DNA of 64,000 bases from Deltaproteobacteria bacterium (GCA_029547045.1 JAKPQL010000076.1:1442-65441), one strand, 5' to 3'. Numbered from the stretch's first letter, positions 3,231-36,174 are shown. The notes: a model not told the origin generated them from the letters alone. A program made the numbers and translations.

Positions 3231-4190
3231 TCAGTTCAGCTCTTTGATCTTCATCCCTTTGGCGGTCAGGGCCTTCCTGTTGGCGAGCAGGTCCCTGGCG
3301 GCGATCCTGTCCAGCACGTAGATCATATCGCCTCCTCGCGCTGCGTATGTCTGGCTGTAGGAGATCGGGATGTCCGGCGTCGGGTCTCCGAGCAGCGAGA
3401 GGGCCACCGGCTCGACCTTGCGCTCGCCGTTGGCAAGGAGGATGACGGTCTTTGCCTTGTAGACGAGTTCCGCGCCCATGGACACGGCATAGTTGGGGGA
3501 CTCCTTCTTCGTGGCGAAGTGGCCGTCCGCCACCGCGTTGGCCACGGTGTTGTCATCGAGCTTCACGAGCATGACGCTGCTCCCCTTGAAGGGGATGCCG
3601 GACTCGTGGAAGGCCACGTGTCCTCTGCCTCCCACGCCTATGATCTGGAGGTCGATGCCGCCCGCCTTTCTGATCTTTTTCGCATAGCCGTCCAGGATCT
3701 CCCTCTTCACCCATGCGAGGTAGGCGGACTTCGCGCTGTCGCTGATGGCGATGGACTTTCCTTTGTCCGTTCCCAGCGCAACCCAGTCCTTCGGGTTCGC
3801 CTTCAGCTCGGCAATGAGCCTTTTCTGCTCGACGAGCGAGCCGAAGGGCACGTTTGTCTCCATGAACTTGTCCCTGAGGAGGCTGAAAAACTCCTGGATC
3901 ATGAAAAAGGCATAACTCTCGGGGTGCATGACCCGCTGCTGGACATTCTCTCCGGGCAGGCCCACGTACTCGTCCAGGTTGAAGCTCATGCAGGCCTTCG
4001 CGTCGAACTCACCCTTGTTGGCGGACTTTGCCAGGTGCTTGTAGAGCCCGGTGGGCGAATTGCCCGTCGCAAGACCGAGGACGGCCCGCCCCTTCTGCTT
4101 CAGCGTCTGCTGGATCTTCTTCTTGGCGATGTCCGCAGCCACCTCGCTCATTGCTGCGAAGTCCTTTGTGACGATGATCTGTATGCCCAT
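3231..4190 (-). CDS. glucosamine-6-phosphate deaminase / 6-phosphogluconolactonase superfamily protein (long NagB-like form)
   Basis: 319 aa. Carries the motifs GLATGNSPTGLY, NLDEYVGL and GVGGRGHVAFHESG typical of the NagB/Pgl fold. An extra internal segment makes it longer than classical NagB. RBS GGGGAGG precedes ATG 4190. Confidence 0.8.
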   Translation of the reverse strand: MGIQIIVTKDFAAMSEVAADIAKKKIQQTLKQKGRAVLGLATGNSPTGLYKHLAKSANKGEFDAKACMSFNLDEYVGLPGENVQQRVMHPESYAFFMIQEFFSLLRDKFMETNVPFGSLVEQKRLIAELKANPKDWVALGTDKGKSIAISDSAKSAYLAWVKREILDGYAKKIRKAGGIDLQIIGVGGRGHVAFHESGIPFKGSSVMLVKLDDNTVANAVADGHFATKKESPNYAVSMGAELVYKAKTVILLANGERKVEPVALSLLGDPTPDIPISYSQTYAARGGDMIYVLDRIAARDLLANRKALTAKGMKIKELN

Positions 4191-4248: not shown

Positions 4249-5598
4249 TCAGCCGATTGTCTTCTTTACGAGTTCCGCCAGCTGAGTGCAATACTTCTCC
4301 GTCACGGCGTCCGTCGGGCCTTCCACCATGACTCGGCACATGTTCTGGGTCCCGGAGTAGCGGATCAGCACCCTTCCCTCCTCGCCAAGCTCCCTTTCCA
4401 CCTGGGCGATGGCCTCCTTCAGCTCGGGCACCGTGCCGATGTCCGGTTTGCTCTTCACGTTCACGTTGATGAGCTTCTGCGGGAAGACGTCCATGAGCCT
4501 GGCAAGCTCGGACAGCGGCTTGCCTGTCTTCACCATGGCCGAAACCAGCTGCATGGCCGTGAGGATGCCGTCCCCCGTGGTGTGGTGGTTGAGGAAGATC
4601 ATGTGCCCTGACTCTTCCCCGCCGATGACGCCGCCCATGCTGAGCATGTCCTCGAGCACGTAGCGGTCACCGACCTTGGATGCGTGGTGCTTGAATCCGT
4701 ATTTCCTGCACGCCACCCGCAGCCCGAGGTTGCTCATCACCGTGCTCACGAGGAGGTCGTTCTTCAGCTTTCCCTCCTCCTTGAGGATCTTTGAGCAGAT
4801 GAGGAGGATCTGGTCGCCGGTGATCTCGTTGCCCTTCTCGTCCACCGCGATGAGGCGGTCGCCGTCGCCGTCAAATGCGAGACCGATGGAGGCCCCGTTT
4901 TCCAGCACCTTCTTCTTCAGGTCGCCCGTGTGCTGCGACCCGCACTTCTCATTGATGTTCAGTCCGTTGGGCTTGTTGTGGATGACCTCCACATCCGCGC
5001 CGAGCTCTGTGAACGCCTCGGGCGCAACGCGGTAGGTCGCCCCGTTCGCCGTGTCCAGGACCATCTTCATCCCTTCCATGGAGAGTTCGCGGGGGAAGGT
5101 GTTCTTCAGGAAGACCACGTACCGTCCGTTCACGTCCTCCATGCGGAATGCCTGCCCCATGTCCTTCGAGGCGGGCAGGTAGTCTGCCAGCTTGCCCCCC
5201 AGCATGAGGTCCTCGATGGTGTTCTCCTGTTCGTCGGAGAGTTTGAACCCGTTTCCGCCGAAGATCTTGATCCCGTTGTCCTCGTAGGGGTTGTGGGAGG
5301 CCGAGATGACGATGCCCGCGTCGGCCCGCATGCTGTTGGCGATGAAGGCGATGCCGGGCGTGGGGAGTACGCCCACCAGGTAGGGGTTGCCGCCCATGGA
5401 GGTGATGCCCGCCTCCAGGGAGCTCTCGAGCATATAGCCAGAAATGCGCGTGTCCTTGCCGATGATGATGCGCGTGCGGTGGTTCTCCTTCCGGAGAAGG
5501 TACGTCACTGCCTGGCCGACCTTGAAGGCGATGTCCGCGGTCATGGGGTAGCGGTTCGCCTCGCCGCGTATCCCGTCAGTTCCGAAAAGCTTTCCCAT
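4249..5598 (-). CDS. glmM: phosphoglucosamine mutase
   Basis: 449 aa. Starts MGKLFGTDGIRG, with phosphoserine loop SASHNPYEDNGIK and metal loop FDGDGDR. RBS GAGGAGG. Confidence 0.93.
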   Translation of the reverse strand: MGKLFGTDGIRGEANRYPMTADIAFKVGQAVTYLLRKENHRTRIIIGKDTRISGYMLESSLEAGITSMGGNPYLVGVLPTPGIAFIANSMRADAGIVISASHNPYEDNGIKIFGGNGFKLSDEQENTIEDLMLGGKLADYLPASKDMGQAFRMEDVNGRYVVFLKNTFPRELSMEGMKMVLDTANGATYRVAPEAFTELGADVEVIHNKPNGLNINEKCGSQHTGDLKKKVLENGASIGLAFDGDGDRLIAVDEKGNEITGDQILLICSKILKEEGKLKNDLLVSTVMSNLGLRVACRKYGFKHHASKVGDRYVLEDMLSMGGVIGGEESGHMIFLNHHTTGDGILTAMQLVSAMVKTGKPLSELARLMDVFPQKLINVNVKSKPDIGTVPELKEAIAQVERELGEEGRVLIRYSGTQNMCRVMVEGPTDAVTEKYCTQLAELVKKTIG

Positions 5599-6936: not shown

Positions 6937-9900
6937 TCAATGATCAGCCTTCCCGATCTGCTCGAAAATCCTGTTCTTGATGACCTCCACGTCCTCGCCC
7001 AGCAGGAACTTCACCGTCAGGCCGTCGAGGTACTCGTCTTTCCAGGGGATGTTGTACTCGTTGATGAGGTTCGTGATGTCGTTGATCTTCACGCCCATGA
7101 TCTCCTTCTTCTGTGCCGTGGTGAGCGTCTCGTCGAAGTCCACCTGGAGCAGGAGCAGGTGGGTGATGTCCCGCTTTGTGCCCTGGATGGGGATGATGAT
7201 GATGGATGCATCGTCAAAGCGGCCCGTTCCCGCATACACCTTGCGTGTGCGGACAATGGTGTTCTTGGTGCCCTTCAGCGGTGCCTTCCGGTCATACCTG
7301 GACTGCATGCCGGAAGCGACGCCCTGGCGCTTCACGATGGAGAGGGTCGTCTGTGGAGTTGGCATGCCCACCTCGTCCAGGCCCTCCACCGCGTACAGGG
7401 TGTACCCCTTGACCCTCCCGACCGCGGTCTGCAGGTTCTTGAGCGTCAGCATGTCCTTGGCTCGCACGCTCTCCGGCGAGTACCCGAGTTCCGAGAACAC
7501 GGCGAAGATGGGCCCCTTGGGCGCCTCGACCTTCCTGCTGGTGCCCACCGTTACGGTCTTGGCCTGGTGGCGGATTGCGTCCACCGGCCGCGAGAGCTCT
7601 TCGATGGCGCGCTTCATGGTGAGGTCCAGCATGTCTATGGGCGAAGACGATATTCTCCTGCCCTCGAACTCCATCCAGAAATCCTCCACAGGGAGCTTGC
7701 CCTTGGCATACTTGAGCAGGAGCCTGATGTCCGAGGACACGTCGTTGCTCAGGGAGGTAAGGGACCCGCTGTCCAGGCACTTCTTGTACTCAGCCTCGAA
7801 GGCGTCAACCACAAGGTGGAGCCCCTTGTCCGCTATGCTCTCGTAGACGGTATATTCCCGCTTCCGGTGTTCCCGCGCGATCTCTGCGAGGGTGGTACGG
7901 AACCCCTTCAGCGTTGCGGCCAGCGCGTCCAGGCTGCAGGCCGCGTAATAGCCCCAGATGTGCCCGGCCAGGGTGTTGAAGATGACTGAGAGCGGGAACG
8001 CGGCGCGGGGAACACGTATGACCGCGTCCGCAATGGTGTCGAACCGGTGCTCGCCCTCGTCGGTGATGACCACTACACTGGCCGCATGGGCCTTGAAGAT
8101 GGCCACGTCCTTGACGATGTCCTCCACGACGATCTCCGGGCTCCCTGCGGCGCACACGAGGATGAGCGGTTCCGAGGACAGGTCGATGTGCTTCTTGTCC
8201 TCGATGATGTCCGACGAGATGGTCTTGTAACAGAGCTCGGAGAGCTTGATGCGGATCTCGTCGGACGCCACCTTGTTGATGCCGCTTCCCACCACGGCCC
8301 AGTACTGCTTCCTCCGGACCAGTTCCCACGCGGTCTTCCTGATGGCATCCCTGCCCTGGATCACCTCCCTCATGAGGCCGGGGGCATCCTCAAGGGTCAT
8401 CAGGTCCCGGGCGATGGCCTCATCAGACATGGTCTTCATGGTCTGCGCGAAGAAGAGCGCGAGTACGTACCCAGCCACGATTTGCGCGTAGAACGCCTTG
8501 GTGGAGGCCACGGACATTTCGATGTCCCGCCCGTCGCTCGTGTAGAACACGCCGTCGACCTTGGTGGTGATGTCCGACTGCCTGCGGTTCACGATGGCGA
8601 TGAGCCGCGCGCCCCTCTGCCTGGCCATGCTCACGGCGCGGTTCGTGTCCGTGGTGGTCCCGGACTGGGTGATGGCGATGACCAGGGTGTCCGACATGTC
8701 CTCCTCGAGCAGGAACCCGCTCAGGTCCGTGGCCTTCCGGGCCTGGACGTTGACGGTCGCGGGCCTGAGGTAGGCGGAGATGGCCTCGGCCACGGCGGAG
8801 GCGGCCACTGCGGCCGTGCCCTGCCCCACCACGTAGATGTTCCTGATCCTGCCCCCACCCATCGCCTCCCTGGTTGCGGGGTCCACGATGCCGTCGTCCA
8901 GGTTGAACACCGCCTTGCCGCCTGCTCCGATACGGTACTTGCCCCGCAGGGTCTTGCGGATGGAGTCGGGGGCGTCGAGGATTTCCTTGATGAGGAAGTG
9001 GGGATGGTCACCCCTGTCGATGTCGCGGGTGGTCATCTGGGCCAGGCCGATGTCCTTCCCGGTGAGGCACAGGGGATGCCCGTCGTAGGACATGGCCTCG
9101 ATGCCGGCAAGCCCGGGGCCCCGGTCATGGTGCAGCACGAACAGCTGGCCCTGGGTTGCCGGGTCGTCCGGCACGCGAGGGGTCTCGCCGTCCATCTTGA
9201 TGAACCTCTGGGTCTCTTCCACCAGACCGTATATCTCGGAGGCGAACATGTAGCCGTTCTCGAGGAGGCCCACGTAGATGGTCTGTCCGCTGCCCTTCTG
9301 GGCGAGGTATATCGTGCCCGGCTCCAGGTTGCTCTCCATGGCGATGGCATGGGAGCCCTCGAAGTCGCACACAGCCCTGCGGAAGGCCTCCTTCAGGTCA
9401 TGGCCCTTGAGGAGGTATCGTTCGATCTGCAGGGGGATGACCTTGGTGTCGGTGGTCACGTCCGGGCTCACGTGCGTGCCTGCCGCCTCGATGTCGTTCC
9501 TGATCCGGTGGTGGTTGTCGATGTCCCCGTTGAGCACCGCGCTGATGGTCCACGCGCCCTGCCCGTAAAAGGGGTAGTCCCTGAGGGCCACGGGGATGCC
9601 TTGGTCCTCCCCGGGCCTTTGGTCCACGGTGTGGCTGTCCACCGGGTGGCAGTTGACCTCGTTGATGGCGCCCACAGAGGCCCAGCGTGTATGGGTGAGG
9701 TACGCCTCCGTGGCGCAGTCCAGACCCAGGGTGACCCTGAGGATGCTGTCCCGGCAGATGTACGCGCGCAGCTTGGCCGTGTTCTCGCCGAGCTCGCCGG
9801 TGATCTGGGCGGTCTTGTACGTAAAGGAGACACTGGATCCGCCCAGGCGTATGGATCCGTTCATCAGGTCACCGGGCCCGGACCGGGAGAGAAACTCTTC

Positions 9901-10776
9901 CAGGTGCCCTTCCTGGGCGAGCATCTGTCTCAGGCCTGCAGCGGCATCCTTTCCCCTGAGCTCCACCATGACCTGGAGTCCGGCAGAGTCGCGCCCCCGC
10001 ACCTCGAGCCGGTCCAGGGCGTTGAGACAGGCATTGATCCTCAGGTACCGGCCGAACAGTGACGGATTCTCGAAGATCCCGGGCCCGGCCAGGTCCTGGA
10101 TCTTGTCGAGATTCCCGATGATGTCAGTCCTCAGTGACCAGGACACGTCCTTCAGCGTGATGAGGCGGGCCGTCATGGCCTCCAGTTCCCCTGGCGGGAT
10201 GCCCCCTGCCTCCCTCTCCAGGGCCTCGTCCTCACTGTCCACAAAGGTCTTGAGCCGCTGCGACACTTCCCTGAGACGGCCGAGGCCGCCGCCGGAGAGC
10301 AGGGCATGCTGAAGGTCCGAGTCCTGCTTGATCAGCGTGATCCCACGGTGAAGCTCCTCCAGGGATCCCGGGTCCAGGTATGCCTCTTTCCCGGTCCTGC
10401 CGGAGATCAGGGATGCCATGCCATGGCCGTACACGGCACCTGCGGCCCTCTCCAGGTCCTCAAGGATGGAACCGTGCGCTGCGGATGAGGCCCGTCTGAT
10501 GCACACGAAGCCGGCAAGCCCGCAGCAGAGCAGGTGGTCCTGGATGGGGAGGAAAACGACGGCCGGCCCGCGAAGGGTCCTCGGGTCTTTCCCGACATAC
10601 ACCCTCCATCCCTGTTTCCTGCGCTCTCCGGCTGTAAACACCTTGAACATGGGGGCCCTCATCCGCCACCGGTCCCTGATGGCAGTGTGGAGACCGTCCA
10701 CCCACCGCCTCAGATGTCCCTTCGACTGCCCTCTATAGCATCCGGAAGACATGACAGGCAATCCCCTATGCCCCAT
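6937..10776 (-). CDS. giant glutamine--fructose-6-phosphate aminotransferase (GlmS)-like protein: Ntn amidotransferase + 2 SIS domains + extra domains
   Basis: 1279-aa ORF. Class II amidotransferase motifs CGLAGFV, RLEVRGRDSAGL, HTRWASVG and NGDIDNH. Two SIS domains (VVGQGTAAVAA...ITQSGTTTDT; VVGSGINKVASDE). A GlmS C-terminus-like AKTVTVG is followed by about 200 more residues. The start is uncertain: ATG 10776 overlaps the carA stop, and ATG 10752 and 10650 have RBS-like AGGGGA/GAGGG. Confidence 0.8.
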   Translation of the reverse strand: MGHRGLPVMSSGCYRGQSKGHLRRWVDGLHTAIRDRWRMRAPMFKVFTAGERRKQGWRVYVGKDPRTLRGPAVVFLPIQDHLLCCGLAGFVCIRRASSAAHGSILEDLERAAGAVYGHGMASLISGRTGKEAYLDPGSLEELHRGITLIKQDSDLQHALLSGGGLGRLREVSQRLKTFVDSEDEALEREAGGIPPGELEAMTARLITLKDVSWSLRTDIIGNLDKIQDLAGPGIFENPSLFGRYLRINACLNALDRLEVRGRDSAGLQVMVELRGKDAAAGLRQMLAQEGHLEEFLSRSGPGDLMNGSIRLGGSSVSFTYKTAQITGELGENTAKLRAYICRDSILRVTLGLDCATEAYLTHTRWASVGAINEVNCHPVDSHTVDQRPGEDQGIPVALRDYPFYGQGAWTISAVLNGDIDNHHRIRNDIEAAGTHVSPDVTTDTKVIPLQIERYLLKGHDLKEAFRRAVCDFEGSHAIAMESNLEPGTIYLAQKGSGQTIYVGLLENGYMFASEIYGLVEETQRFIKMDGETPRVPDDPATQGQLFVLHHDRGPGLAGIEAMSYDGHPLCLTGKDIGLAQMTTRDIDRGDHPHFLIKEILDAPDSIRKTLRGKYRIGAGGKAVFNLDDGIVDPATREAMGGGRIRNIYVVGQGTAAVAASAVAEAISAYLRPATVNVQARKATDLSGFLLEEDMSDTLVIAITQSGTTTDTNRAVSMARQRGARLIAIVNRRQSDITTKVDGVFYTSDGRDIEMSVASTKAFYAQIVAGYVLALFFAQTMKTMSDEAIARDLMTLEDAPGLMREVIQGRDAIRKTAWELVRRKQYWAVVGSGINKVASDEIRIKLSELCYKTISSDIIEDKKHIDLSSEPLILVCAAGSPEIVVEDIVKDVAIFKAHAASVVVITDEGEHRFDTIADAVIRVPRAAFPLSVIFNTLAGHIWGYYAACSLDALAATLKGFRTTLAEIAREHRKREYTVYESIADKGLHLVVDAFEAEYKKCLDSGSLTSLSNDVSSDIRLLLKYAKGKLPVEDFWMEFEGRRISSSPIDMLDLTMKRAIEELSRPVDAIRHQAKTVTVGTSRKVEAPKGPIFAVFSELGYSPESVRAKDMLTLKNLQTAVGRVKGYTLYAVEGLDEVGMPTPQTTLSIVKRQGVASGMQSRYDRKAPLKGTKNTIVRTRKVYAGTGRFDDASIIIIPIQGTKRDITHLLLLQVDFDETLTTAQKKEIMGVKINDITNLINEYNIPWKDEYLDGLTVKFLLGEDVEVIKNRIFEQIGKADH

Positions 10777-11914
10777 TCGGGGTATGTCTCTCCATCAGCT
10801 CCATGAACTCCCTGAAGAGATATCCGGCATCCCTGGGGCCCGGGGCGGCCTCGGGGTGGTACTGAACACTGAAGGCCTTCAGGTCCGGCGCCCTGAATCC
10901 CTCCAGGGTGCCGTCGTTCAGGTTGATGTGGGTCACCTGTGTGTCGCGGGGAAGCGTCTCCCTGAGCACCACGAACCCGTGGTTCTGAGAGGAGATCTCC
11001 ACGCGGCCCGTGATCAGGTTCTTTACGGGCTGGTTTATCCCATGGTGGCCGAACTTGAGCTTGGCGGTCCTGGCGCCCAGTGCCTGGCCCAGGATCTGGT
11101 GTCCGAGGCAGATCCCGAAGACGGGCAGCCTGCCCAGGAGTTCCCTCACCGTGTCCACCAGGCAGGTGAGCGGCGCCGGGTCCCCGGGACCGTTGGAGAG
11201 CAGCAGGCCGTCCGGCTCAAAGGCCAGCACGTCGTGGGGTCCTGTCGCTGCGGGGACCACCACGACCTCGCACCCCTGGGCCTCGAGCATGCGGAGGATG
11301 TTGAGCTTGACACCGCAGTCCATGACCACCACCCGGGGTCTGTCCTTCTTCTCAGGCATTGCGTCAAGGGGCATCCTGGCGTTGCCCTTCCAGATGCAGG
11401 GCGCATCGCAGGTGACGCCCTGCACGATGTCCCTGCCGACGAGCCCCGGATAGGCCCGGACAGCATCCAGGAGGCCCCTGATGTCCCCAGTGTCCGTGGA
11501 GACGACACCCCGCATGGCGCCCATGGTGCGGATGCGCCGGGTGAGCGCCCTGGTGTCGACGCCCTCGATGCCGATGCGTCCGTTCTCCTGAAGGTACGCT
11601 GCCAGGCTCTTCCTGGACCGGTGGTTGCTTGGGAACGGCTGGTATTCACGTACCACGAGGCACTCCAGGTGGATGCCAGCCGACTCAACGTCCTCGTCGT
11701 TGATGCCGTAGTTCCCGATGAGGGGATACGTCATGACCAGGATCTGTTCCCTGTAGGAAGGGTCCGTGAGGCACTCCTGGTACCCGGTCATGCCCGTGTT
11801 GAACACGACCTCGCCGAAGCGGGAGCCCTCTCCGGCAAAGACCCGCCCCCGGTACACGGTGCCGTCTTCGAGCACCAGAACGGCGGGTCCTGTGGAGTTG
11901 CCAGTCAATCCCAT
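10766..11914 (-). CDS. carA: carbamoyl-phosphate synthase small (glutaminase) subunit
   Basis: 382 aa. Contains VFNTGMTGYQE and the catalytic region VFGICLGHQIL (class I amidotransferase). Confidence 0.93.
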   Translation of the reverse strand: MGLTGNSTGPAVLVLEDGTVYRGRVFAGEGSRFGEVVFNTGMTGYQECLTDPSYREQILVMTYPLIGNYGINDEDVESAGIHLECLVVREYQPFPSNHRSRKSLAAYLQENGRIGIEGVDTRALTRRIRTMGAMRGVVSTDTGDIRGLLDAVRAYPGLVGRDIVQGVTCDAPCIWKGNARMPLDAMPEKKDRPRVVVMDCGVKLNILRMLEAQGCEVVVVPAATGPHDVLAFEPDGLLLSNGPGDPAPLTCLVDTVRELLGRLPVFGICLGHQILGQALGARTAKLKFGHHGINQPVKNLITGRVEISSQNHGFVVLRETLPRDTQVTHINLNDGTLEGFRAPDLKAFSVQYHPEAAPGPRDAGYLFREFMELMERHTPNGA

Positions 11915-15736: not shown

Positions 15737-17371
15737 CTACACCACGTACCGAATGCCCAGGCGCTCCGCTGCGTTACGGTCGTCGATGCCTAAGGCATCC
15801 GCCATGCCTATGGGCAGCGACGTGGACCTGCCGAGCGGTGCAAGAATCTTCTTGAGCTCTGCATCGAAGCTCACAAACACGTCCACCAGCCTCTGGGCGA
15901 CATCTTCCGGGTCGAGCCGCCGGTAGATCCGGGGGTCCTGGGAGGTGATGCCCTTGGGACAGAGCCCTATGTTGCAGATGTTGCAGCGGTCCGCCTCCGA
16001 ACCAACGCAGCCCCCGCAGGCCTGCATGATGTACTTGCCCGCCTGGATCCCGCTGGCACCGAGCATGATGAGCGCCGCCGCGTTTGCGGCCAGGTTCCCG
16101 TTCTTGCCCACCCCTCCGCCGGCAAGGATCGGGATTTCGTTCTGCTTGCCTATCTTCACCAGGTTGAGATAGGCGTCGCGGATATTGCTGGCGATGGGAT
16201 GGCCCATGTGGTTCATGGACACGTTGTAGGCCGCGCCCGTGCCGCCATCCTCCCCGTCGATGGCGAGGCCTGCGGCGTAGGGGTTCCGGGCCAGGTTGTT
16301 CAGCACGGCGAGCGTCGTGGTTGTGGCCGAAATCTTCGGGTACACAGGCACCCTGAAGCCCCAGGCCATGCACATGGACTGGATCATCTTGGCCACGGAC
16401 TCCTCGATGGAGTACTTCGTCTGGTGCGTGGGCGGCGACGGCAGACTCACGCCCGTGGGCACGCCCCGGATGGCCGCGATGAGCTTGTTTACCTTGTACC
16501 ACATGAGCAGACCGCCGTCCCCGGGCTTGGCCCCCTGTCCGTACTTGATCTCGATGGCGCAGGGGTCTTCCTTCATCTCGGGCAGGGCGTGGATGATCTC
16601 ATCCCACCCGAAGTATCCGCTGGCGATCTGGAGAATGACGTACTTGAGGAACCGCGAACGCAGGAGCCTCGGCGGGCACCCTCCCTCGCCGGTGCACATG
16701 CGCACGGGCATGCCCAGTTCCTCGTTCAGGTAGGCTACGCCCATCTGGAGGCCTTCCCACATGTTCGGGGACAGTGCGCCGAAGGACATGCCTCCCACCA
16801 TGAGGGGATAGATCTCCCGCACGGGCGGTATCCACAGGTTTTCCCGCTGGGCTCTGAGGGACTCCTCCGGCGAGAGGATCCTCCCCAGCAGGGTCCTCAC
16901 CTCGAACTCGTGCCTGCCGGCGTCAAGGGCTGGGTCGGTGAGCATGGAGATTCGCACGAACTTGATCCTGTCCAGCACGCTCCCCGGGTCGTTGCGCCTG
17001 CCCCCCCTGCGCCTGGGCTCGCCGCCCTTGTTGACATGGAAGCGGAGCTTGTCGGCCTCGTCGCTGCGCAACGCCATGATGGCCCCGTTGGGGCATACCT
17101 GGGTGCACAGTCCGCACCCGATGCATGCCCGGGCCGGGTCCGTCACCTGGTCGATGCCGTGATAGACCTGGTAGAGGTTCGAGGGCTTCGTGGCGAGACC
17201 CACGGAGACCTCCATGGTGCGCTTGCGGTGAACGCCGAGTCCGATGGCCCTCACCGGGCAGGCTGCCGTGCACCTGCCGCACAGGGTGCACTTCTCCCTT
17301 TTCCACAGGACCCGCCAGGGCAGGTCCCTGGTGCTCAGTGTGGACGGATGCAGGTTTCCCACTGGTTCCAT
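15737..17371 (-). CDS. glutamate synthase FMN/synthase domain subunit with N-terminal 4Fe-4S ferredoxin domain (archaeal-type GltB2)
   Basis: 544 aa. CTLCGRCTAACP and CIGCGLCTQVCP ferredoxin motifs, then a Glu_synthase TIM-barrel region (IKYGQGAKPGDGG, EDGGTGAA, LAGGGV). Confidence 0.9.
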   Translation of the reverse strand: MEPVGNLHPSTLSTRDLPWRVLWKREKCTLCGRCTAACPVRAIGLGVHRKRTMEVSVGLATKPSNLYQVYHGIDQVTDPARACIGCGLCTQVCPNGAIMALRSDEADKLRFHVNKGGEPRRRGGRRNDPGSVLDRIKFVRISMLTDPALDAGRHEFEVRTLLGRILSPEESLRAQRENLWIPPVREIYPLMVGGMSFGALSPNMWEGLQMGVAYLNEELGMPVRMCTGEGGCPPRLLRSRFLKYVILQIASGYFGWDEIIHALPEMKEDPCAIEIKYGQGAKPGDGGLLMWYKVNKLIAAIRGVPTGVSLPSPPTHQTKYSIEESVAKMIQSMCMAWGFRVPVYPKISATTTTLAVLNNLARNPYAAGLAIDGEDGGTGAAYNVSMNHMGHPIASNIRDAYLNLVKIGKQNEIPILAGGGVGKNGNLAANAAALIMLGASGIQAGKYIMQACGGCVGSEADRCNICNIGLCPKGITSQDPRIYRRLDPEDVAQRLVDVFVSFDAELKKILAPLGRSTSLPIGMADALGIDDRNAAERLGIRYVV

Positions 17372-18465
17372 ATCTGTACCTCTGTCCGCGCGGCATCAAC
17401 GTATGCCACGTCGTACTTCATGGGCTGGTATTCCAGCTTTCTGTCTCGGTCCGGGATGGCCTCGTCCAGTCCGCACATCTCCGAGGAAAAGGCATACCTC
17501 CCCTTTTTACCTCCAATGACGCCAGGCCTGAGCTTCTTGGAATCCTGCACCATGAACAGGGTCTTGTCCGGCAGGCACCCGATCACGCAGTTTGGTCCGT
17601 CGACGGTGAGGAACCGGCACGCATGCTTCAGGTTCCGAAGATAGGATGCATCCGGGTGTCGCAGGAGTTCCTCGTCCTTGAGCGGGGTGATGATATGCTT
17701 GTATTCGGGCAGCCCCAGGCCCAGGGTGTTCTTCGTGTAGTGGAGGATGTGGGCAAAGACCTCGGAGTCCGACTGGTAACCCATGTACCCCGGGAAACCC
17801 CGGGACATGAGGTATTCCCTGTTGGGCACGAAAGCGGTGTTCTCCCCGTTGGTCATGGTGGCATATCCCTGGATGAAGAAGGGGTGGCAGGCATAGAGCG
17901 TGATGGCATAGTTCGTGTTCTGGCGGCCCTGGGCAAGGAGGACCCTGGCCCTGAGCCCGTTGTTGTCCAGACCGAGGTACTGGGCCACCTCCATGGGGTC
18001 TCCCACCTCCTTGATCATGATGGTGTCCGGCCAGAATGAGAAGACCACCATGGACTGGTCTTCCTCGCCGAGACGCCTCAACTCCACGCGGATGTTCATG
18101 AGCCGGTCCGCGATCTCAGCAGGGGAGAATCCCTCCCACTCGTACGGGTATTCGTAGACGCGGATGAGATAGGCGTCTCGTTTGGGCGTCCCCGCGGGCG
18201 GCTTCCCGCTGGGTCTGATGGAGAGCTTGAACTTGGTGAGCAGACCTATCTCCATCATGTAGCGGTCGAGCTTCTTGATTCCCTCCTGGGAGAAGATCCC
18301 GGACAGGATGGGAAAGTCCCTGAACTGCTCCAGCTCACCCCCAAGGTCCGTGAGCATGAGCCCTACCCCGGACCCGTCATGACCTTCCTTCATGGCGTTG
18401 AGCGCTCGGATGGCCACCATGGGGGAAAGGGCATCTTCACTGGTGATGGCAAAGAGACGGCACAC
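17335..18465 (-). CDS. glutamate synthase class II glutamine amidotransferase subunit (archaeal-type GltB1)
   Basis: 376 aa. GTG start followed by Cys (M-CRLFAITS), as expected for an Ntn nucleophile. RBS GGGAGGA 6 nt upstream. The 3' end overlaps the next gene by 37 nt. Confidence 0.85.
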   Translation of the reverse strand: MCRLFAITSEDALSPMVAIRALNAMKEGHDGSGVGLMLTDLGGELEQFRDFPILSGIFSQEGIKKLDRYMMEIGLLTKFKLSIRPSGKPPAGTPKRDAYLIRVYEYPYEWEGFSPAEIADRLMNIRVELRRLGEEDQSMVVFSFWPDTIMIKEVGDPMEVAQYLGLDNNGLRARVLLAQGRQNTNYAITLYACHPFFIQGYATMTNGENTAFVPNREYLMSRGFPGYMGYQSDSEVFAHILHYTKNTLGLGLPEYKHIITPLKDEELLRHPDASYLRNLKHACRFLTVDGPNCVIGCLPDKTLFMVQDSKKLRPGVIGGKKGRYAFSSEMCGLDEAIPDRDRKLEYQPMKYDVAYVDAARTEVQIWNQWETCIRPH

Positions 18466-18507
18466 GCATGTTCCTCCCTGGGCTTCTTGTCATGCTCCTT
18501 CAGTATA

Positions 18508-18522
18508 GCCATAACTATGCCA
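18508..18522 (-). promoter_or_regulatory. candidate sigma-54 (-24/-12) promoter of the GOGAT-glnA operon
   Basis: The minus strand reads TGGCATAGTTATGGC. GG-N10-GC spacing is correct, but the -12 element is TGGC rather than TTGC. It lies about 40 nt upstream of the GTG start at 18465. Confidence 0.45.
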
Positions 18523-21775: not shown

Positions 21776-22117
<342 letters not shown>

Positions 22118-26947: not shown

Positions 26948-27107
26948 GCGTTCCTCCGTATGCTGGTATGGTTGTGCCCCATGGGTGCCGGATCCCACCC
27001 GTGGCTGACTCACCCGTAACCCTCTTAGGTCAGTCAGCATGTCTGTTCAATACAAAATCATGGAAACGGGTGCGGGGCATCCTTTCGTCTCCTTGTGCCC
27101 CCCTACA

Positions 27108-27122
27108 GCAAGGACGGTGCCA
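27108..27122 (-). promoter_or_regulatory. sigma-54 (-24/-12) promoter of glnN
   Basis: The minus strand reads TGGCACCGTCCTTGC, a perfect TGGCAC-N5-TTGC. It lies about 160 nt upstream of ATG 26947. Confidence 0.7.
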
Positions 27123-32892: not shown

Positions 32893-34290
32893 TCAGATGC
32901 AGTACTTGTCGAAGGCGGCGGGGACCGGGGTGCGGTACTCGCCGCTGAAGCAGGCGGTGCAGTAGTCCTGCGGGTTGTCCACGGTGCTGAGCATGCCCTC
33001 GATGGTGAGGTAGCCCAGGGAATCCGCGCCCAGGTAGGCCCGTATCTCCTCGATGGATTTCTCGCTGGCGATGAGTTCAGAGTGCCTGGAGATGTCGATG
33101 CCGTAGTAGCAGGGGTGCTTGATGGGGGGCGAGCTGATGCGGACGTGCACCTCGCGGGCGCCCTTGTCGCGGAGGATCTGCACGATCTGGCGCATGGTGG
33201 TGCCCCTCACGATGGAGTCGTCCACGAGGACCACACGGCGATCGTCCAGCACGCCGGTCACGGGGTTGAGCTTCACCTTGACGTCCAGCTTTCGTTTGTC
33301 CTGGTGGGGCGCGATGAAGGTGCGGCCCACGTAGTGATTCCTGATGAGCCCGATCTCGTAGCGCAGGCCCGAGACCCGCGCATACCCCAGGGCCGCGGTG
33401 TTGCCCGAGTCGGGCACGGCGATGACGATGTCGGCTTCCGCGGGCGAATCCTCGGCGAGCCTCTTGCCGAGCCTCCTGCGGATCTTGTCCACCTTTTCCG
33501 AGAAGATGAGGCTGTCGGGCCTGGAGAAGTAGATGTGCTCGAAGATGCACAGGCTCTTCTGTGGCGCCTCGGGAAGCCTGCTCGACCTCAGGCCGCTCCT
33601 GTCGACGATGATGACTTCGCCGGGCTCCACGGACCTGACATACTCGGCGCCCATGATGTCGAAGGCGCAGGACTCGGACGCCACCAGCCAGGCATCGCCG
33701 TGTCTGCCGAGATTCAGCGGCCTGAAGCCCTGCGGGTCTCGGGCAGCGATGAGCATGTCCCTGGTGAGGAACACGAAGCAGTAGGCGCCCACGAGCTGCT
33801 TCAGGGCATCCATGACCGCTTCCGTCACGTCGGTCTTCCGGGAGCGTGCGACGAGGTGCAGCACGATCTCGCTGTCGGAGGTGGTCTGGAAGATGGACCC
33901 GGTGTCCTGCATCTCCCTCCTGAGCTGGGAGGCATTGGTGATGGTCCCGTTGTGAGCCACCGCTATGGTGCCGGTCCTGCACTCTATGACAATGGGCTGG
34001 GCATTGACCAGGGTGGAGCCTCCCCGGGTGGAGTAGCGGTTGTGGCCGATGGCCGCGTGTCCCTTGAGCCTGGGCATGACGGCAGGGTCGGCAAAGACCG
34101 ACCACACGAGCCCCATGCCCCTGTGGTGCTCCACGCAGGCGCCGTCCGTGGCGGCGATGCCGGCGCTCTCCTGCCCCCTGTGCTGGAGGGCGTAGAGCCC
34201 GAGGTATGTCTGCTCTGCGGCCCGGGGGTCGCCGTAGATGCCCACAATGCCGCATTCCTCGCGCCAATGGTCGTCAAGATGATCATCCAT
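32893..34290 (-). CDS. purF: amidophosphoribosyltransferase (with short propeptide)
   Basis: 465 aa. MDDHLDDHWREE-CGIVGIYG (nucleophile Cys after a 12-residue leader), HRGQESAGIA, and the PRTase loop VVLVDDSIVRGTT. Confidence 0.93.
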   Translation of the reverse strand: MDDHLDDHWREECGIVGIYGDPRAAEQTYLGLYALQHRGQESAGIAATDGACVEHHRGMGLVWSVFADPAVMPRLKGHAAIGHNRYSTRGGSTLVNAQPIVIECRTGTIAVAHNGTITNASQLRREMQDTGSIFQTTSDSEIVLHLVARSRKTDVTEAVMDALKQLVGAYCFVFLTRDMLIAARDPQGFRPLNLGRHGDAWLVASESCAFDIMGAEYVRSVEPGEVIIVDRSGLRSSRLPEAPQKSLCIFEHIYFSRPDSLIFSEKVDKIRRRLGKRLAEDSPAEADIVIAVPDSGNTAALGYARVSGLRYEIGLIRNHYVGRTFIAPHQDKRKLDVKVKLNPVTGVLDDRRVVLVDDSIVRGTTMRQIVQILRDKGAREVHVRISSPPIKHPCYYGIDISRHSELIASEKSIEEIRAYLGADSLGYLTIEGMLSTVDNPQDYCTACFSGEYRTPVPAAFDKYCI

Positions 34291-34451
34291 GCCCAGGTAC
34301 TGTGCAAGCCAGGGGCCAGTCCTGTTTCAGAACTGCGACCTCGTGGAGCCGCAGGGTTTCACGATGCATGGCCCATGGTACGTCCGGGTCGAGGGACATT
34401 TTCGTCCATTCATGCGCTTTTGGCTCAATATTGTTTCAACGAACACCTGCA

Positions 34452-36119: not shown

Positions 36120-36159
36120 GGTCTCCCCCTTCAAGCTTCATTGTTTCAGGGAGACGACT

Positions 36160-36174
36160 GCAATTGCCCTGCCA
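36160..36174 (-). promoter_or_regulatory. sigma-54 (-24/-12) promoter of asnB-purF-(aaRS-like) operon
   Basis: The minus strand reads TGGCAGGGCAATTGC (TGGCA-N6-TTGC, correct spacing). It lies about 40 nt upstream of ATG 36119. Confidence 0.7.

Follow-up and report, generated by a model that had tools for sequence, protein, structure and literature searches.

Within a 64,000-nucleotide stretch of DNA from a Deltaproteobacteria bacterium (GCA_029547045.1 JAKPQL010000076.1:1442-65441; hereafter the window), one long open reading frame (ORF) on the minus strand encodes a protein that, judged from its sequence and a structural model, is GlmS in function and core fold, and that very probably acts as a glucosamine-6-phosphate (GlcN6P) synthase. 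This protein, referred to below as long GlmS, differs from every characterized GlmS or GFAT by four additions for which we found no family model, solved structure or literature. To our knowledge, all characterized forms of GlmS are 600-700 amino acids (aa) in length and start with Met-Cys. Compared with E. coli GlmS (609 aa; PDB 2j6h, 1jxa, 4amv), long GlmS is twice the length and about 20% identical, possesses a leader of 42-46 aa instead of the Met-Cys start, and contains additional helical segments of ~150 aa behind the first strand and ~105 aa ahead of the catalytic C-tail, further insertions at residues 268-325 and 383-410, and a ~195 aa domain that follows the C-tail (Table 1). The explanation we favor, and regard as probable, is that long GlmS is the GlmS of the hexosamine pathway, made as a proenzyme, allosterically regulated, and feeding GlmM and a GlmU-like acetyltransferase.

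The amino sugars of peptidoglycan and lipopolysaccharide are made through a pathway whose committed step is catalyzed by GlmS, an enzyme that has long served as a drug and regulation model. The results described here define a family about twice the size of GlmS, present in at least 594 species-level genomes, one clade of which carries a conserved leader before the catalytic Cys; three of its conserved modules are without a Pfam model, solved structure or literature. If the interpretations offered below hold, the family would provide a new mode by which hexosamine synthesis is placed under direct allosteric control, a naturally occurring example of propeptide acquisition by N-terminal nucleophile (Ntn) amidotransferases, and a new small domain family for curation. 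The name under which these proteins are filed matters as well: NCBI calls them only 'SIS domain-containing protein', while JGI/UniRef automatic annotation calls them GlmS, and metabolic reconstructions of syntrophs and sulfate reducers that rely on the NCBI label may therefore report glmS as missing.

Table 1. Long GlmS, its parts and its nearest neighbors in the window
Feature	Position	Strand	Residues, basis or remark
Longest ORF of long GlmS, 1279 aa	6937..10776	(-)	stop codon 6937-6939
Two likely start codons	10648..10662	(-)	ATG 10662 (M39, MRAPMFKV), ATG 10650 (M43)
Pre-cysteine leader	10525..10662	(-)	residues 39-84; alignment of loci
Conserved leader motif (last 27 residues)	10525-10605	(-)	residues 58-84; 56 loci
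Class II (Ntn) glutaminase domain including insertions	9142..10524	(-)	residues 85-545; Pfam, NCBIfam, alignment, Foldseek to GFAT1/GlmS
Cys85 codon, homolog of nucleophile Cys1 of GlmS	10522..10524	(-)	alignment
Insertion 1	10033..10491	(-)	residues 96-248; alignment, AlphaFold2
Insertion 2, in glutaminase domain	9802..9975	(-)	residues 268-325; two helices and two strands
Isomerase part, two SIS subdomains	7939..9021	(-)	residues 586-946; Pfam, alignment, Foldseek
Insertion 5, all-helical, about 105 aa	7618..7938	(-)	residues 947-1053; between last SIS helix and catalytic C-tail
Catalytic C-tail RPVDAIRHQAKTVTVGTSR	7525..7617	(-)	residues 1054-1084; internal loop, not chain end
C-terminal extension, about 195 aa	6940..7524	(-)	residues 1085-1279; AlphaFold2, Foldseek
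GlmU-like partner, 416 aa, left-handed beta-helix	5639..6889	(-)	GlmU models, profile positions about 241-452
glmM, phosphoglucosamine mutase, next pathway step	4249..5598	(-)	TIGR01455, 588 bits vs cut-off 448
nagB-like, 319 aa, glucosamine-6-phosphate deaminase/isomerase family	3231..4190	(-)	below cut-off, two pieces
carA, carbamoyl-phosphate synthase small subunit	10766..11914	(-)	directly upstream of long glmS

A GlmS core in a widespread long-form family

The first-pass annotation of the window, made from the DNA sequence alone, had described a 1279-aa ORF at 6937-10776 as a GlmS homolog, and had proposed profile searches to delimit its known domains. The ORF is present as described. In these searches, Pfam recognized only GATase_6/7 (residues 355-518) and one SIS domain (645-774), the NCBIfam GlmS models PRK00331 and TIGR01135 covered only residues 357-948, and the nearest solved structures by sequence were human GFAT1 and E. 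coli GlmS (E about 1e-21). For residue numbering, E. coli glmS was fetched and added to the family alignment, and 18 E. coli residues were compared (C1, R26, R73, W74, H86, N98, G99, D123, S303, S347, Q348, S349, T352, E481, K485, E488, H504 and K603). Sixteen of these 18 catalytic or binding residues were identical, with Ser347 replaced by Thr and Ser303 by Ala, both in the query and among its aligned full-length relatives (50 of 51). Cys85, which is invariant in 116 sequences, shares an alignment column with E. coli Cys1, and also with Cys2 in the Met-Cys-Gly long forms described below. The equivalents of the glutamine site and channel (R260=R26, R364/W365=R73/W74, H377=H86, N416/G417=N98/G99 and D443=D123) are all among the identical positions, and C85, R260, R364/W365, N416/G417 and D443 are invariant or nearly so family-wide. 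On the isomerase side, the phosphate-binding loop T703-Q704-S705..T708 corresponds to S347-Q348-S349..T352, E840/K844/E847 to E481/K485/E488, and H863 to H504. K1073 corresponds to E. coli K603 and lies in QAKTVTVG, part of a C-tail that shares the motif AK[ST]VTV with E. coli GlmS. Many of the catalytic and binding residues are likewise invariant among the 116 sequences.

The structural model agreed with these assignments. An AlphaFold2 model of the mature chain (Cys85 to the end, 1195 aa) had a mean predicted local distance difference test score (pLDDT) of 85.7 and a predicted template modeling score (pTM) of 0.74, and a Foldseek comparison of this model with the PDB returned GFAT1 and E. 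coli GlmS as top matches across both domains (E 2e-27 to 2e-25), which together with the retained catalytic residues bears out the initial identification. Target-normalized template modeling (TM) scores were 0.63-0.67 for 6r4h, 2j6h and 1jxa over the whole two-domain fold, that is, an Ntn glutaminase followed by two SIS subdomains, and 0.81-0.86 for the isomerase part against solved GlmS/GFAT isomerase domains. pLDDT fell below 50 in five segments, namely residues 366-374, 848-864 with an adjoining 3-residue stretch, 1072-1084, and the last three residues of the chain. By alignment, 366-374, 848-864 and 1072-1084 map to the Q-loop, the His504 loop and the C-tail, which are mobile catalytic elements in E. 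coli GlmS and become ordered only upon substrate binding; the low pLDDT at 1072-1084 is consistent with a mobile lid. The best structural match, to eukaryotic GFAT1/GFAT2 (about 680-700 aa; PDB 6r4e and others; E 2e-27), is to GlmS relatives whose glutaminase domain likewise carries an additional regulatory insertion, and which are subject to allosteric feedback by UDP-N-acetylglucosamine (UDP-GlcNAc), according to the titles of the PDB entries. However, the GFAT insertion is short, and GFAT possesses neither a leader, nor a helical insertion after the Cys strand, nor a domain after the C-tail. Moreover, the insertion of GFAT1 sits elsewhere than those of long GlmS.

We considered whether long GlmS might instead be a paralog with another job, such as amination of a different ketose phosphate, a catabolic reaction of deaminase type or a mainly regulatory role, with a canonical 600-aa GlmS encoded elsewhere making GlcN6P. 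Its scores lie under the curated GlmS cut-offs (244 bits vs 381 for PRK00331 and 225 vs 418 for TIGR01135), its NCBI label is the generic one given above, its identity to solved GlmS/GFAT structures is about 20%, the cluster includes a nagB-like gene whose product would work against GlmS, and degenerate relatives exist, all of which would suit a paralog. Against this, residues specific to GlmS catalysis have been retained (K603, E488 and H504, channel W74 and the phosphate loop), the gene occupies the usual glmS position beside glmM or glmU in several phyla, and occurrence of the family in at least 594 species genomes fits a housekeeping enzyme. We therefore consider a paralog improbable, and retain the view that long GlmS catalyzes glutamine:fructose-6-phosphate amidotransfer.

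Homologs of long GlmS are abundant. The 120 best matches among 5.8 billion proteins were 50-76% identical to the query, nearly all full length at about 1200-1290 aa, and came from Deltaproteobacteria/Thermodesulfobacteriota and Aminicenantes assemblies. A survey of the phylogenetic distribution of the long form, as the first-pass annotation had suggested, was made by scanning one genome per species, and at least 594 species-representative genomes were found to encode a relative. These genomes are mostly of Thermodesulfobacteriota and Acidobacteriota; the best 80 loci, nearly all of which span the whole mature protein, belong to Syntrophales/Smithella/Syntrophus, Desulfomonilia, Desulfobacterales (Desulfatibacillum, Desulfonema, Desulfosalsimonas and Desulfatitalea) and Acidobacteriota. 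In a conservation profile of 56 full-length genes, reaching down to 40% identity, every extra module other than the short and variable insertion 3 (383-410) held its length (gap fractions 0.00-0.02), and the extra modules showed intermediate conservation, whereas the C-tail was nearly invariant, with 17 of its positions conserved at 97% or more. Searches of the literature for long GlmS, for GlmS propeptides and for GlmS in syntrophs found nothing relevant.

These data bear on whether the ORF is real. Its unusual length, and a first stretch of 38 codons that overlaps or abuts the end of carA (10766), could suggest that separate genes were joined through an error of sequencing or assembly, or that the ORF is over-extended, and the first-pass annotation had itself named such a fusion, or extra segments that are ordinary linkers of characterized GlmS proteins, as grounds for doubt. 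The same uninterrupted full-length architecture is however present in independent assemblies from the at least 594 species genomes, AlphaFold2 yields one confident multi-domain model, and in the alignment the extra segments are absent from characterized GlmS/GFAT. Since module lengths are conserved in the 56 genes, a fusion artifact is ruled out and the main extra modules are not loose linkers; we give an artifact of any kind virtually no credence. GC content by codon position (GC1/2/3 = 0.60/0.43/0.87) is typical of coding sequence and like that of other genes in the window. With respect to the start, the closest homologs begin MRDPMF.. or MRNLMPRSW.. at the position equivalent to M39/M43, and the sequence GAGGG lies five bases upstream of ATG 10650. 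The likely starts would give a product of about 1237-1241 aa, with the 38 codons at the front of the longest ORF probably left untranslated.

The leader in front of the catalytic cysteine

From the two candidate starts, 42 (ATG 10650) or 46 (ATG 10662) residues precede Cys85, which lies in the sequence CCGLAGFV; the first-pass annotation had likewise noted an internal nucleophile at about residue 85, or 43 from ATG 10650, in agreement with the alignment. The leader is in frame, and no start codon adjoins Cys85. Its last 27 residues conform to W-x-V-x-x-G-[RK]-x-P-x-x-[VL]-P-x-x-[SA]-[IV]-[IV]-x-F-P-x5-L-x, immediately followed by the Cys. This motif is kept down to about 40% overall identity across 56 loci and has no counterpart in leaderless relatives, while the residue directly before Cys85 is variable. 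Two other readings of this region were rejected. An internal start yielding Met-Cys at Cys85 is excluded by the TGC codon preceding that of Cys85 and by conservation of the leader at the protein level. Likewise, inspection of 'LLCCG' as a signal peptide or lipoprotein signal revealed no hydrophobic core in the leader, and the residue before the Cys varies.

The history of the leader could be traced by an exhaustive phmmer search of 1.84 billion representatives with the C-terminal 200 residues as query, which recovered 43 full-length cluster representatives. Of these, 27 begin Met-Cys-Gly without a leader and carry the same extra modules, including insertion 1 (RLE motif at about 155-177), as well as the C-tail motif; a Planctomycetota genome is among the sources of leaderless long forms. 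Another 12 of the 43 possess leaders of 17-71 residues. Judged by these sequences, there is a broader long-form family of about 1150-1260 aa, new here, in which most cluster representatives are leaderless Met-Cys-Gly proteins. A neighbor-joining tree rooted on E. coli GlmS placed 22 leader-bearing sequences in one derived clade nested within the leaderless long forms. By this tree the leader is a later acquisition within one clade of long forms, and Cys85 is the homolog of the N-terminal nucleophile, as both the tree and the leaderless Met-Cys-Gly relatives with the same extra domains indicate. A leaderless Met-Cys-Gly protein from a Planctomycetota metagenome-assembled genome (P0130, 1189 aa) sits inside the otherwise leader-bearing clade, possibly because its leader was lost secondarily or its start was called wrongly. 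The search also returned divergent relatives. Three proteins of about 1540 aa (P0182, P0196 and P0221) keep the C-terminal domain but are missing the N-terminal Cys, RLE..RG and QAKTVTV, and one of 1152 aa (P0217) keeps the Met-Cys start and the C-terminal domain while many other catalytic residues are lost; by sequence, these four may be non-enzymatic offshoots of the family.

By the established mechanism of Ntn enzymes, the general base is the alpha-amino group of Cys1 in its free form, and an internal Cys cannot hydrolyze glutamine. The peptide preceding Cys85 must therefore be removed, or else the glutaminase is inactive. The first-pass annotation had posed the same dichotomy, which stands, although the inactive option is unlikely given that the catalytic residues are invariant or nearly so. 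B. subtilis-type PurF has an 11-residue propeptide, and the large subunit of glutamate synthase a presequence of about 36-42 residues; we know of no GlmS or GFAT with a propeptide, and none was found in the literature. Class II amidotransferases are described as carrying residues before the Cys that are cleaved off autocatalytically (PMC9140057), and long GlmS shares with the propeptide-bearing members PurF and glutamate synthase a catalytic Cys that lies behind a peptide. Taken together, the derived origin of the leader, the invariance of the glutamine-site residues in the leader-bearing clade, where they are the same as in the leaderless clade, the requirement of an Ntn Cys for a free amino group, and the behavior of related enzymes suggest that the leader is, somewhat more plausibly than otherwise, a propeptide that is cleaved. 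It would be cut at the X-Cys85 bond, most likely autocatalytically as in other Ntn amidotransferases, and its cleavage would free the alpha-amino group of Cys85 for glutamine hydrolysis.

A rather unlikely alternative is that the leader is never removed but docks on the glutaminase domain, with the enzyme either using free ammonia or becoming active upon displacement of the leader. Superfamily propeptides are described as only 'a few amino acids' (PMC9140057), whereas the last 27 residues of the leader are conserved like a folded element, with the strand-like segments W-x-V-x-V-G and [SA]-[IV]-[IV]-x-F-P. In addition, the gene lies among ammonium-assimilation genes (amtB, glnA and those of glutamate synthase, GOGAT), which makes the supply of ammonia a theme of this locus. 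A leader that stayed in place would nevertheless leave an internal Cys unable to hydrolyze glutamine, and because every glutamine-site residue is invariant in the leader-bearing clade, a silent glutaminase is not expected. For these reasons we prefer removal of the leader as a propeptide.

The PurF encoded in the window (32893-34290, minus strand) has 12 residues before its catalytic Cys (MDDHLDDHWREE followed by CGIVG), a short propeptide of the B. subtilis PurF type, in keeping with the earlier remark that this PurF appears to need propeptide removal. Unlike that pre-Cys peptide, the leader of long GlmS carries a conserved motif of 27 residues.

Extra modules and the C-terminal extension

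The segments added to the GlmS core were examined individually. From Cys85 to R256 of RLEVRGRDSAGL there are 171 residues, compared to 21 in E. coli GlmS, implying an insertion of about 150 aa. Insertion 1 is modeled as all-helical, with a long helical hairpin among its elements and pLDDT mostly above 90, and its residues D210, W213 and N248 are conserved at 97% or more in the 56 full-length genes. Neither the leader nor insertion 1 had a Pfam match at E<=10, and the PDB profile matches of insertion 1 (designed four-helix bundles and HAMP-DHp chimeras; E 1e-6 to 0.1) were attributed to generic similarity among amphipathic helices, not homology. Insertion 2 is conserved in length (gap fraction 0.01), and a further small insertion besides insertion 3 lies at about 550-575. 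For insertion 5, Pfam at E<=10 gave a single chance-level match (Pertussis_S1, E=0.16). Beyond QAKTVTVG in the C-tail there are 201 further residues. The first-pass annotation had estimated about 170 residues from Cys to strand against about 20 in E. coli GlmS, a helical insertion of about 150 aa, a further insertion of about 100 aa after the second SIS domain and about 200 residues past AKTVTVG, estimates that the alignment and model closely reproduce. Its statement that the extra parts fit no family also stands, as Pfam at E<=10 gave nothing credible and PDB profiles nothing meaningful.

The C-terminal extension begins 4-10 residues past the invariant C-tail. It is predicted to be an alpha/beta domain (pLDDT about 90) consisting of 2 helices, a long beta-hairpin, a helix, 3 strands and then helices, and its invariant residues S1159-R1160, G1169-x-K1171, G1183-x-G1185 and D1188 fall in Gly/Lys/Arg/Asp-rich loops. 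In the fold search that the first-pass annotation had recommended for the last residues, the predicted domain had weak PDB matches that agreed with one another in structural class, namely to GAF, PAS-Cache and IclR ligand-binding domains; E lay between 5e-3 and 0.1, probability reached 0.99, and TM was 0.26-0.47 against single-domain targets. The best targets were GAF domains (5hl6, 3lfv, 1f5m), the sensors of KinD and of chemoreceptors, LOV domains, and IclR ligand-binding domains. The topology predicted for the extension, helices on a 5-stranded antiparallel sheet, would fit GAF, PAS-Cache and IclR sensor domains. The likeness to GAF/PAS is weak and at the level of fold, with no Pfam GAF/PAS sequence match; among 25 members of the extension family, Pfam at E<=1 found no GAF or PAS and only scattered single matches. 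The phmmer search with the C-terminal 200 residues reached 169 representative clusters in the 1.84 billion, nearly all of them C-termini of proteins of 1115-1260 aa or fragments, and two odd matches (P0166 and P0242) were repetitive, unrelated proteins. A domain shared with other protein families was rejected on this basis, matches occurring almost only at the C-terminus of the long-GlmS family.

Based on its modeled fold, we tentatively propose that the C-terminal domain could be a ligand-binding regulator, although we hold this to be slightly less than an even chance. In E. coli GlmS, the C-tail is a lid that shuts on the sugar site and contributes to the ammonia channel. In long GlmS, the C-terminal domain, a putative small-molecule sensor of GAF/PAS-like shape, would be joined directly to the lid carrying K1073; because it begins few residues after the C-tail, its movement would act directly on the catalytic lid, and it is this placement on which the proposed allosteric mechanism rests. 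Binding of an effector at the C-terminal domain would then control lid closure and enzyme activity, and the two helical insertions may serve as scaffold or oligomerization surfaces for regulation. The nitrogen-assimilation context of the gene suggests that the effector may be a nitrogen-status signal or a hexosamine end-product signal. The product of the reaction would pass to GlmM and then to the GlmU-like acetyltransferase encoded downstream.

Besides the scores under the curated cut-offs, several points weigh against this explanation taken as a whole. A leader with 27 conserved and apparently structured residues, unlike the short and poorly conserved propeptides of PurF, could stay attached. 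The C-terminal extension had no Foldseek match in the PDB at E<=1e-3 and no Pfam match at E<=10, and a PDB profile search with it returned one chance match. Finally, no biochemical study of any member of the family was found in the literature. Even so, we continue to favor a proenzyme GlmS under allosteric control.

A bolder version of this proposal, which we regard as speculative and rather doubtful, is that long GlmS is metabolite-gated by a new sensor domain on its lid and, in this clade, is a zymogen as well, such that control at the level of protein replaces RNA-based control of glmS. Elsewhere, RNA-based control of glmS is exerted by a ribozyme or by the small RNAs GlmY/GlmZ. No glmS ribozyme or other known RNA was found near long glmS, and Rfam identified only one tRNA over the window. 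Candidate signals would include 2-oxoglutarate, glutamine, GlcN6P and UDP-GlcNAc, with the propeptide providing an irreversible activation step. If true, long GlmS would be the first GlmS known to need proteolytic maturation.

Genomic neighborhood of long glmS

Long GlmS shares with bacterial GlmS a linkage to glmM/glmU-type genes. Downstream, all on the minus strand, lie the genes for the 416-aa GlmU-like protein, GlmM and the nagB-like protein (Table 1). The 416-aa protein matches only the acetyltransferase half of GlmU and bears a C-terminal extension of about 190 aa without a family match; its orthologs are 46-50% identical across phyla, and adjoin long GlmS at two other loci, L003 from an Aminicenantes genome and L005 from an unassigned assembly. 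No uridylyltransferase domain was seen in the long-glmS gene cluster. The nagB-like protein was matched in two pieces, implying an insertion. A deaminase beside a GlcN6P synthase would set up a futile cycle, barring regulation or a different activity of the nagB-like protein.

Upstream of long glmS, also on the minus strand, are carA, glnA, a three-gene split glutamate synthase and a GAF-containing sigma-54 activator. Since the carA stop codon lies 115 bases before ATG 10650, carA and long glmS are probably in one operon, and the GOGAT genes, glnA, carA and long glmS form an apparent operon downstream of the activator gene. carA has no carB beside it and separates glnA from long glmS, an order (glnA-carA-long glmS) that recurs in 10 related loci; other relatives have pyrG as the neighbor. 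Among 84 related loci, the neighbors were pyrG (46), the 416-aa protein (36), glmM (17), the nagB-like gene (12), and glnA, GOGAT genes and carA (10 each), and one leaderless long form lies 2 kb from a full-length glmU. With glmM, GlmU-like or glmU neighbors in several phyla, long glmS fills the usual glmS niche, and it is often co-located with other enzymes that use or make glutamine.

On the other side of the window's nitrogen genes are amtB, a PII candidate, glnD and a type III glutamine synthetase, with purF and asnB farther away, such that positions 3231-36134 make up a dense island of nitrogen-assimilation and glutamine-amidotransferase genes. The PII gene (21779-22117) is a probable assignment, by size and position only. 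A 376-aa protein encoded at 17335-18465 (minus strand) starts (V)CRLFA and has no Pfam or NCBIfam match; the genes that occupy this position in close relatives share 77-84% identity with it, and a GATase_2 gene of a further related locus (L002) shares 26-28%. The 376-aa protein is probably the divergent Ntn glutaminase subunit of the split glutamate synthase.

We also scanned the window with the sigma-54 pattern TGGCAC-N5-TTGC. The number of sites was at chance level (31 vs 30 expected). Four of them lie just upstream of nitrogen genes and on the correct strand: a perfect match at 27107-27122 (-) before the type III glutamine synthetase, a GG-N10-GC match at 18507-18522 (-) before the GOGAT-glnA-carA-glmS string, and one-mismatch sites at 36159-36174 (-) before asnB and at 34303-34318 (-) before purF.

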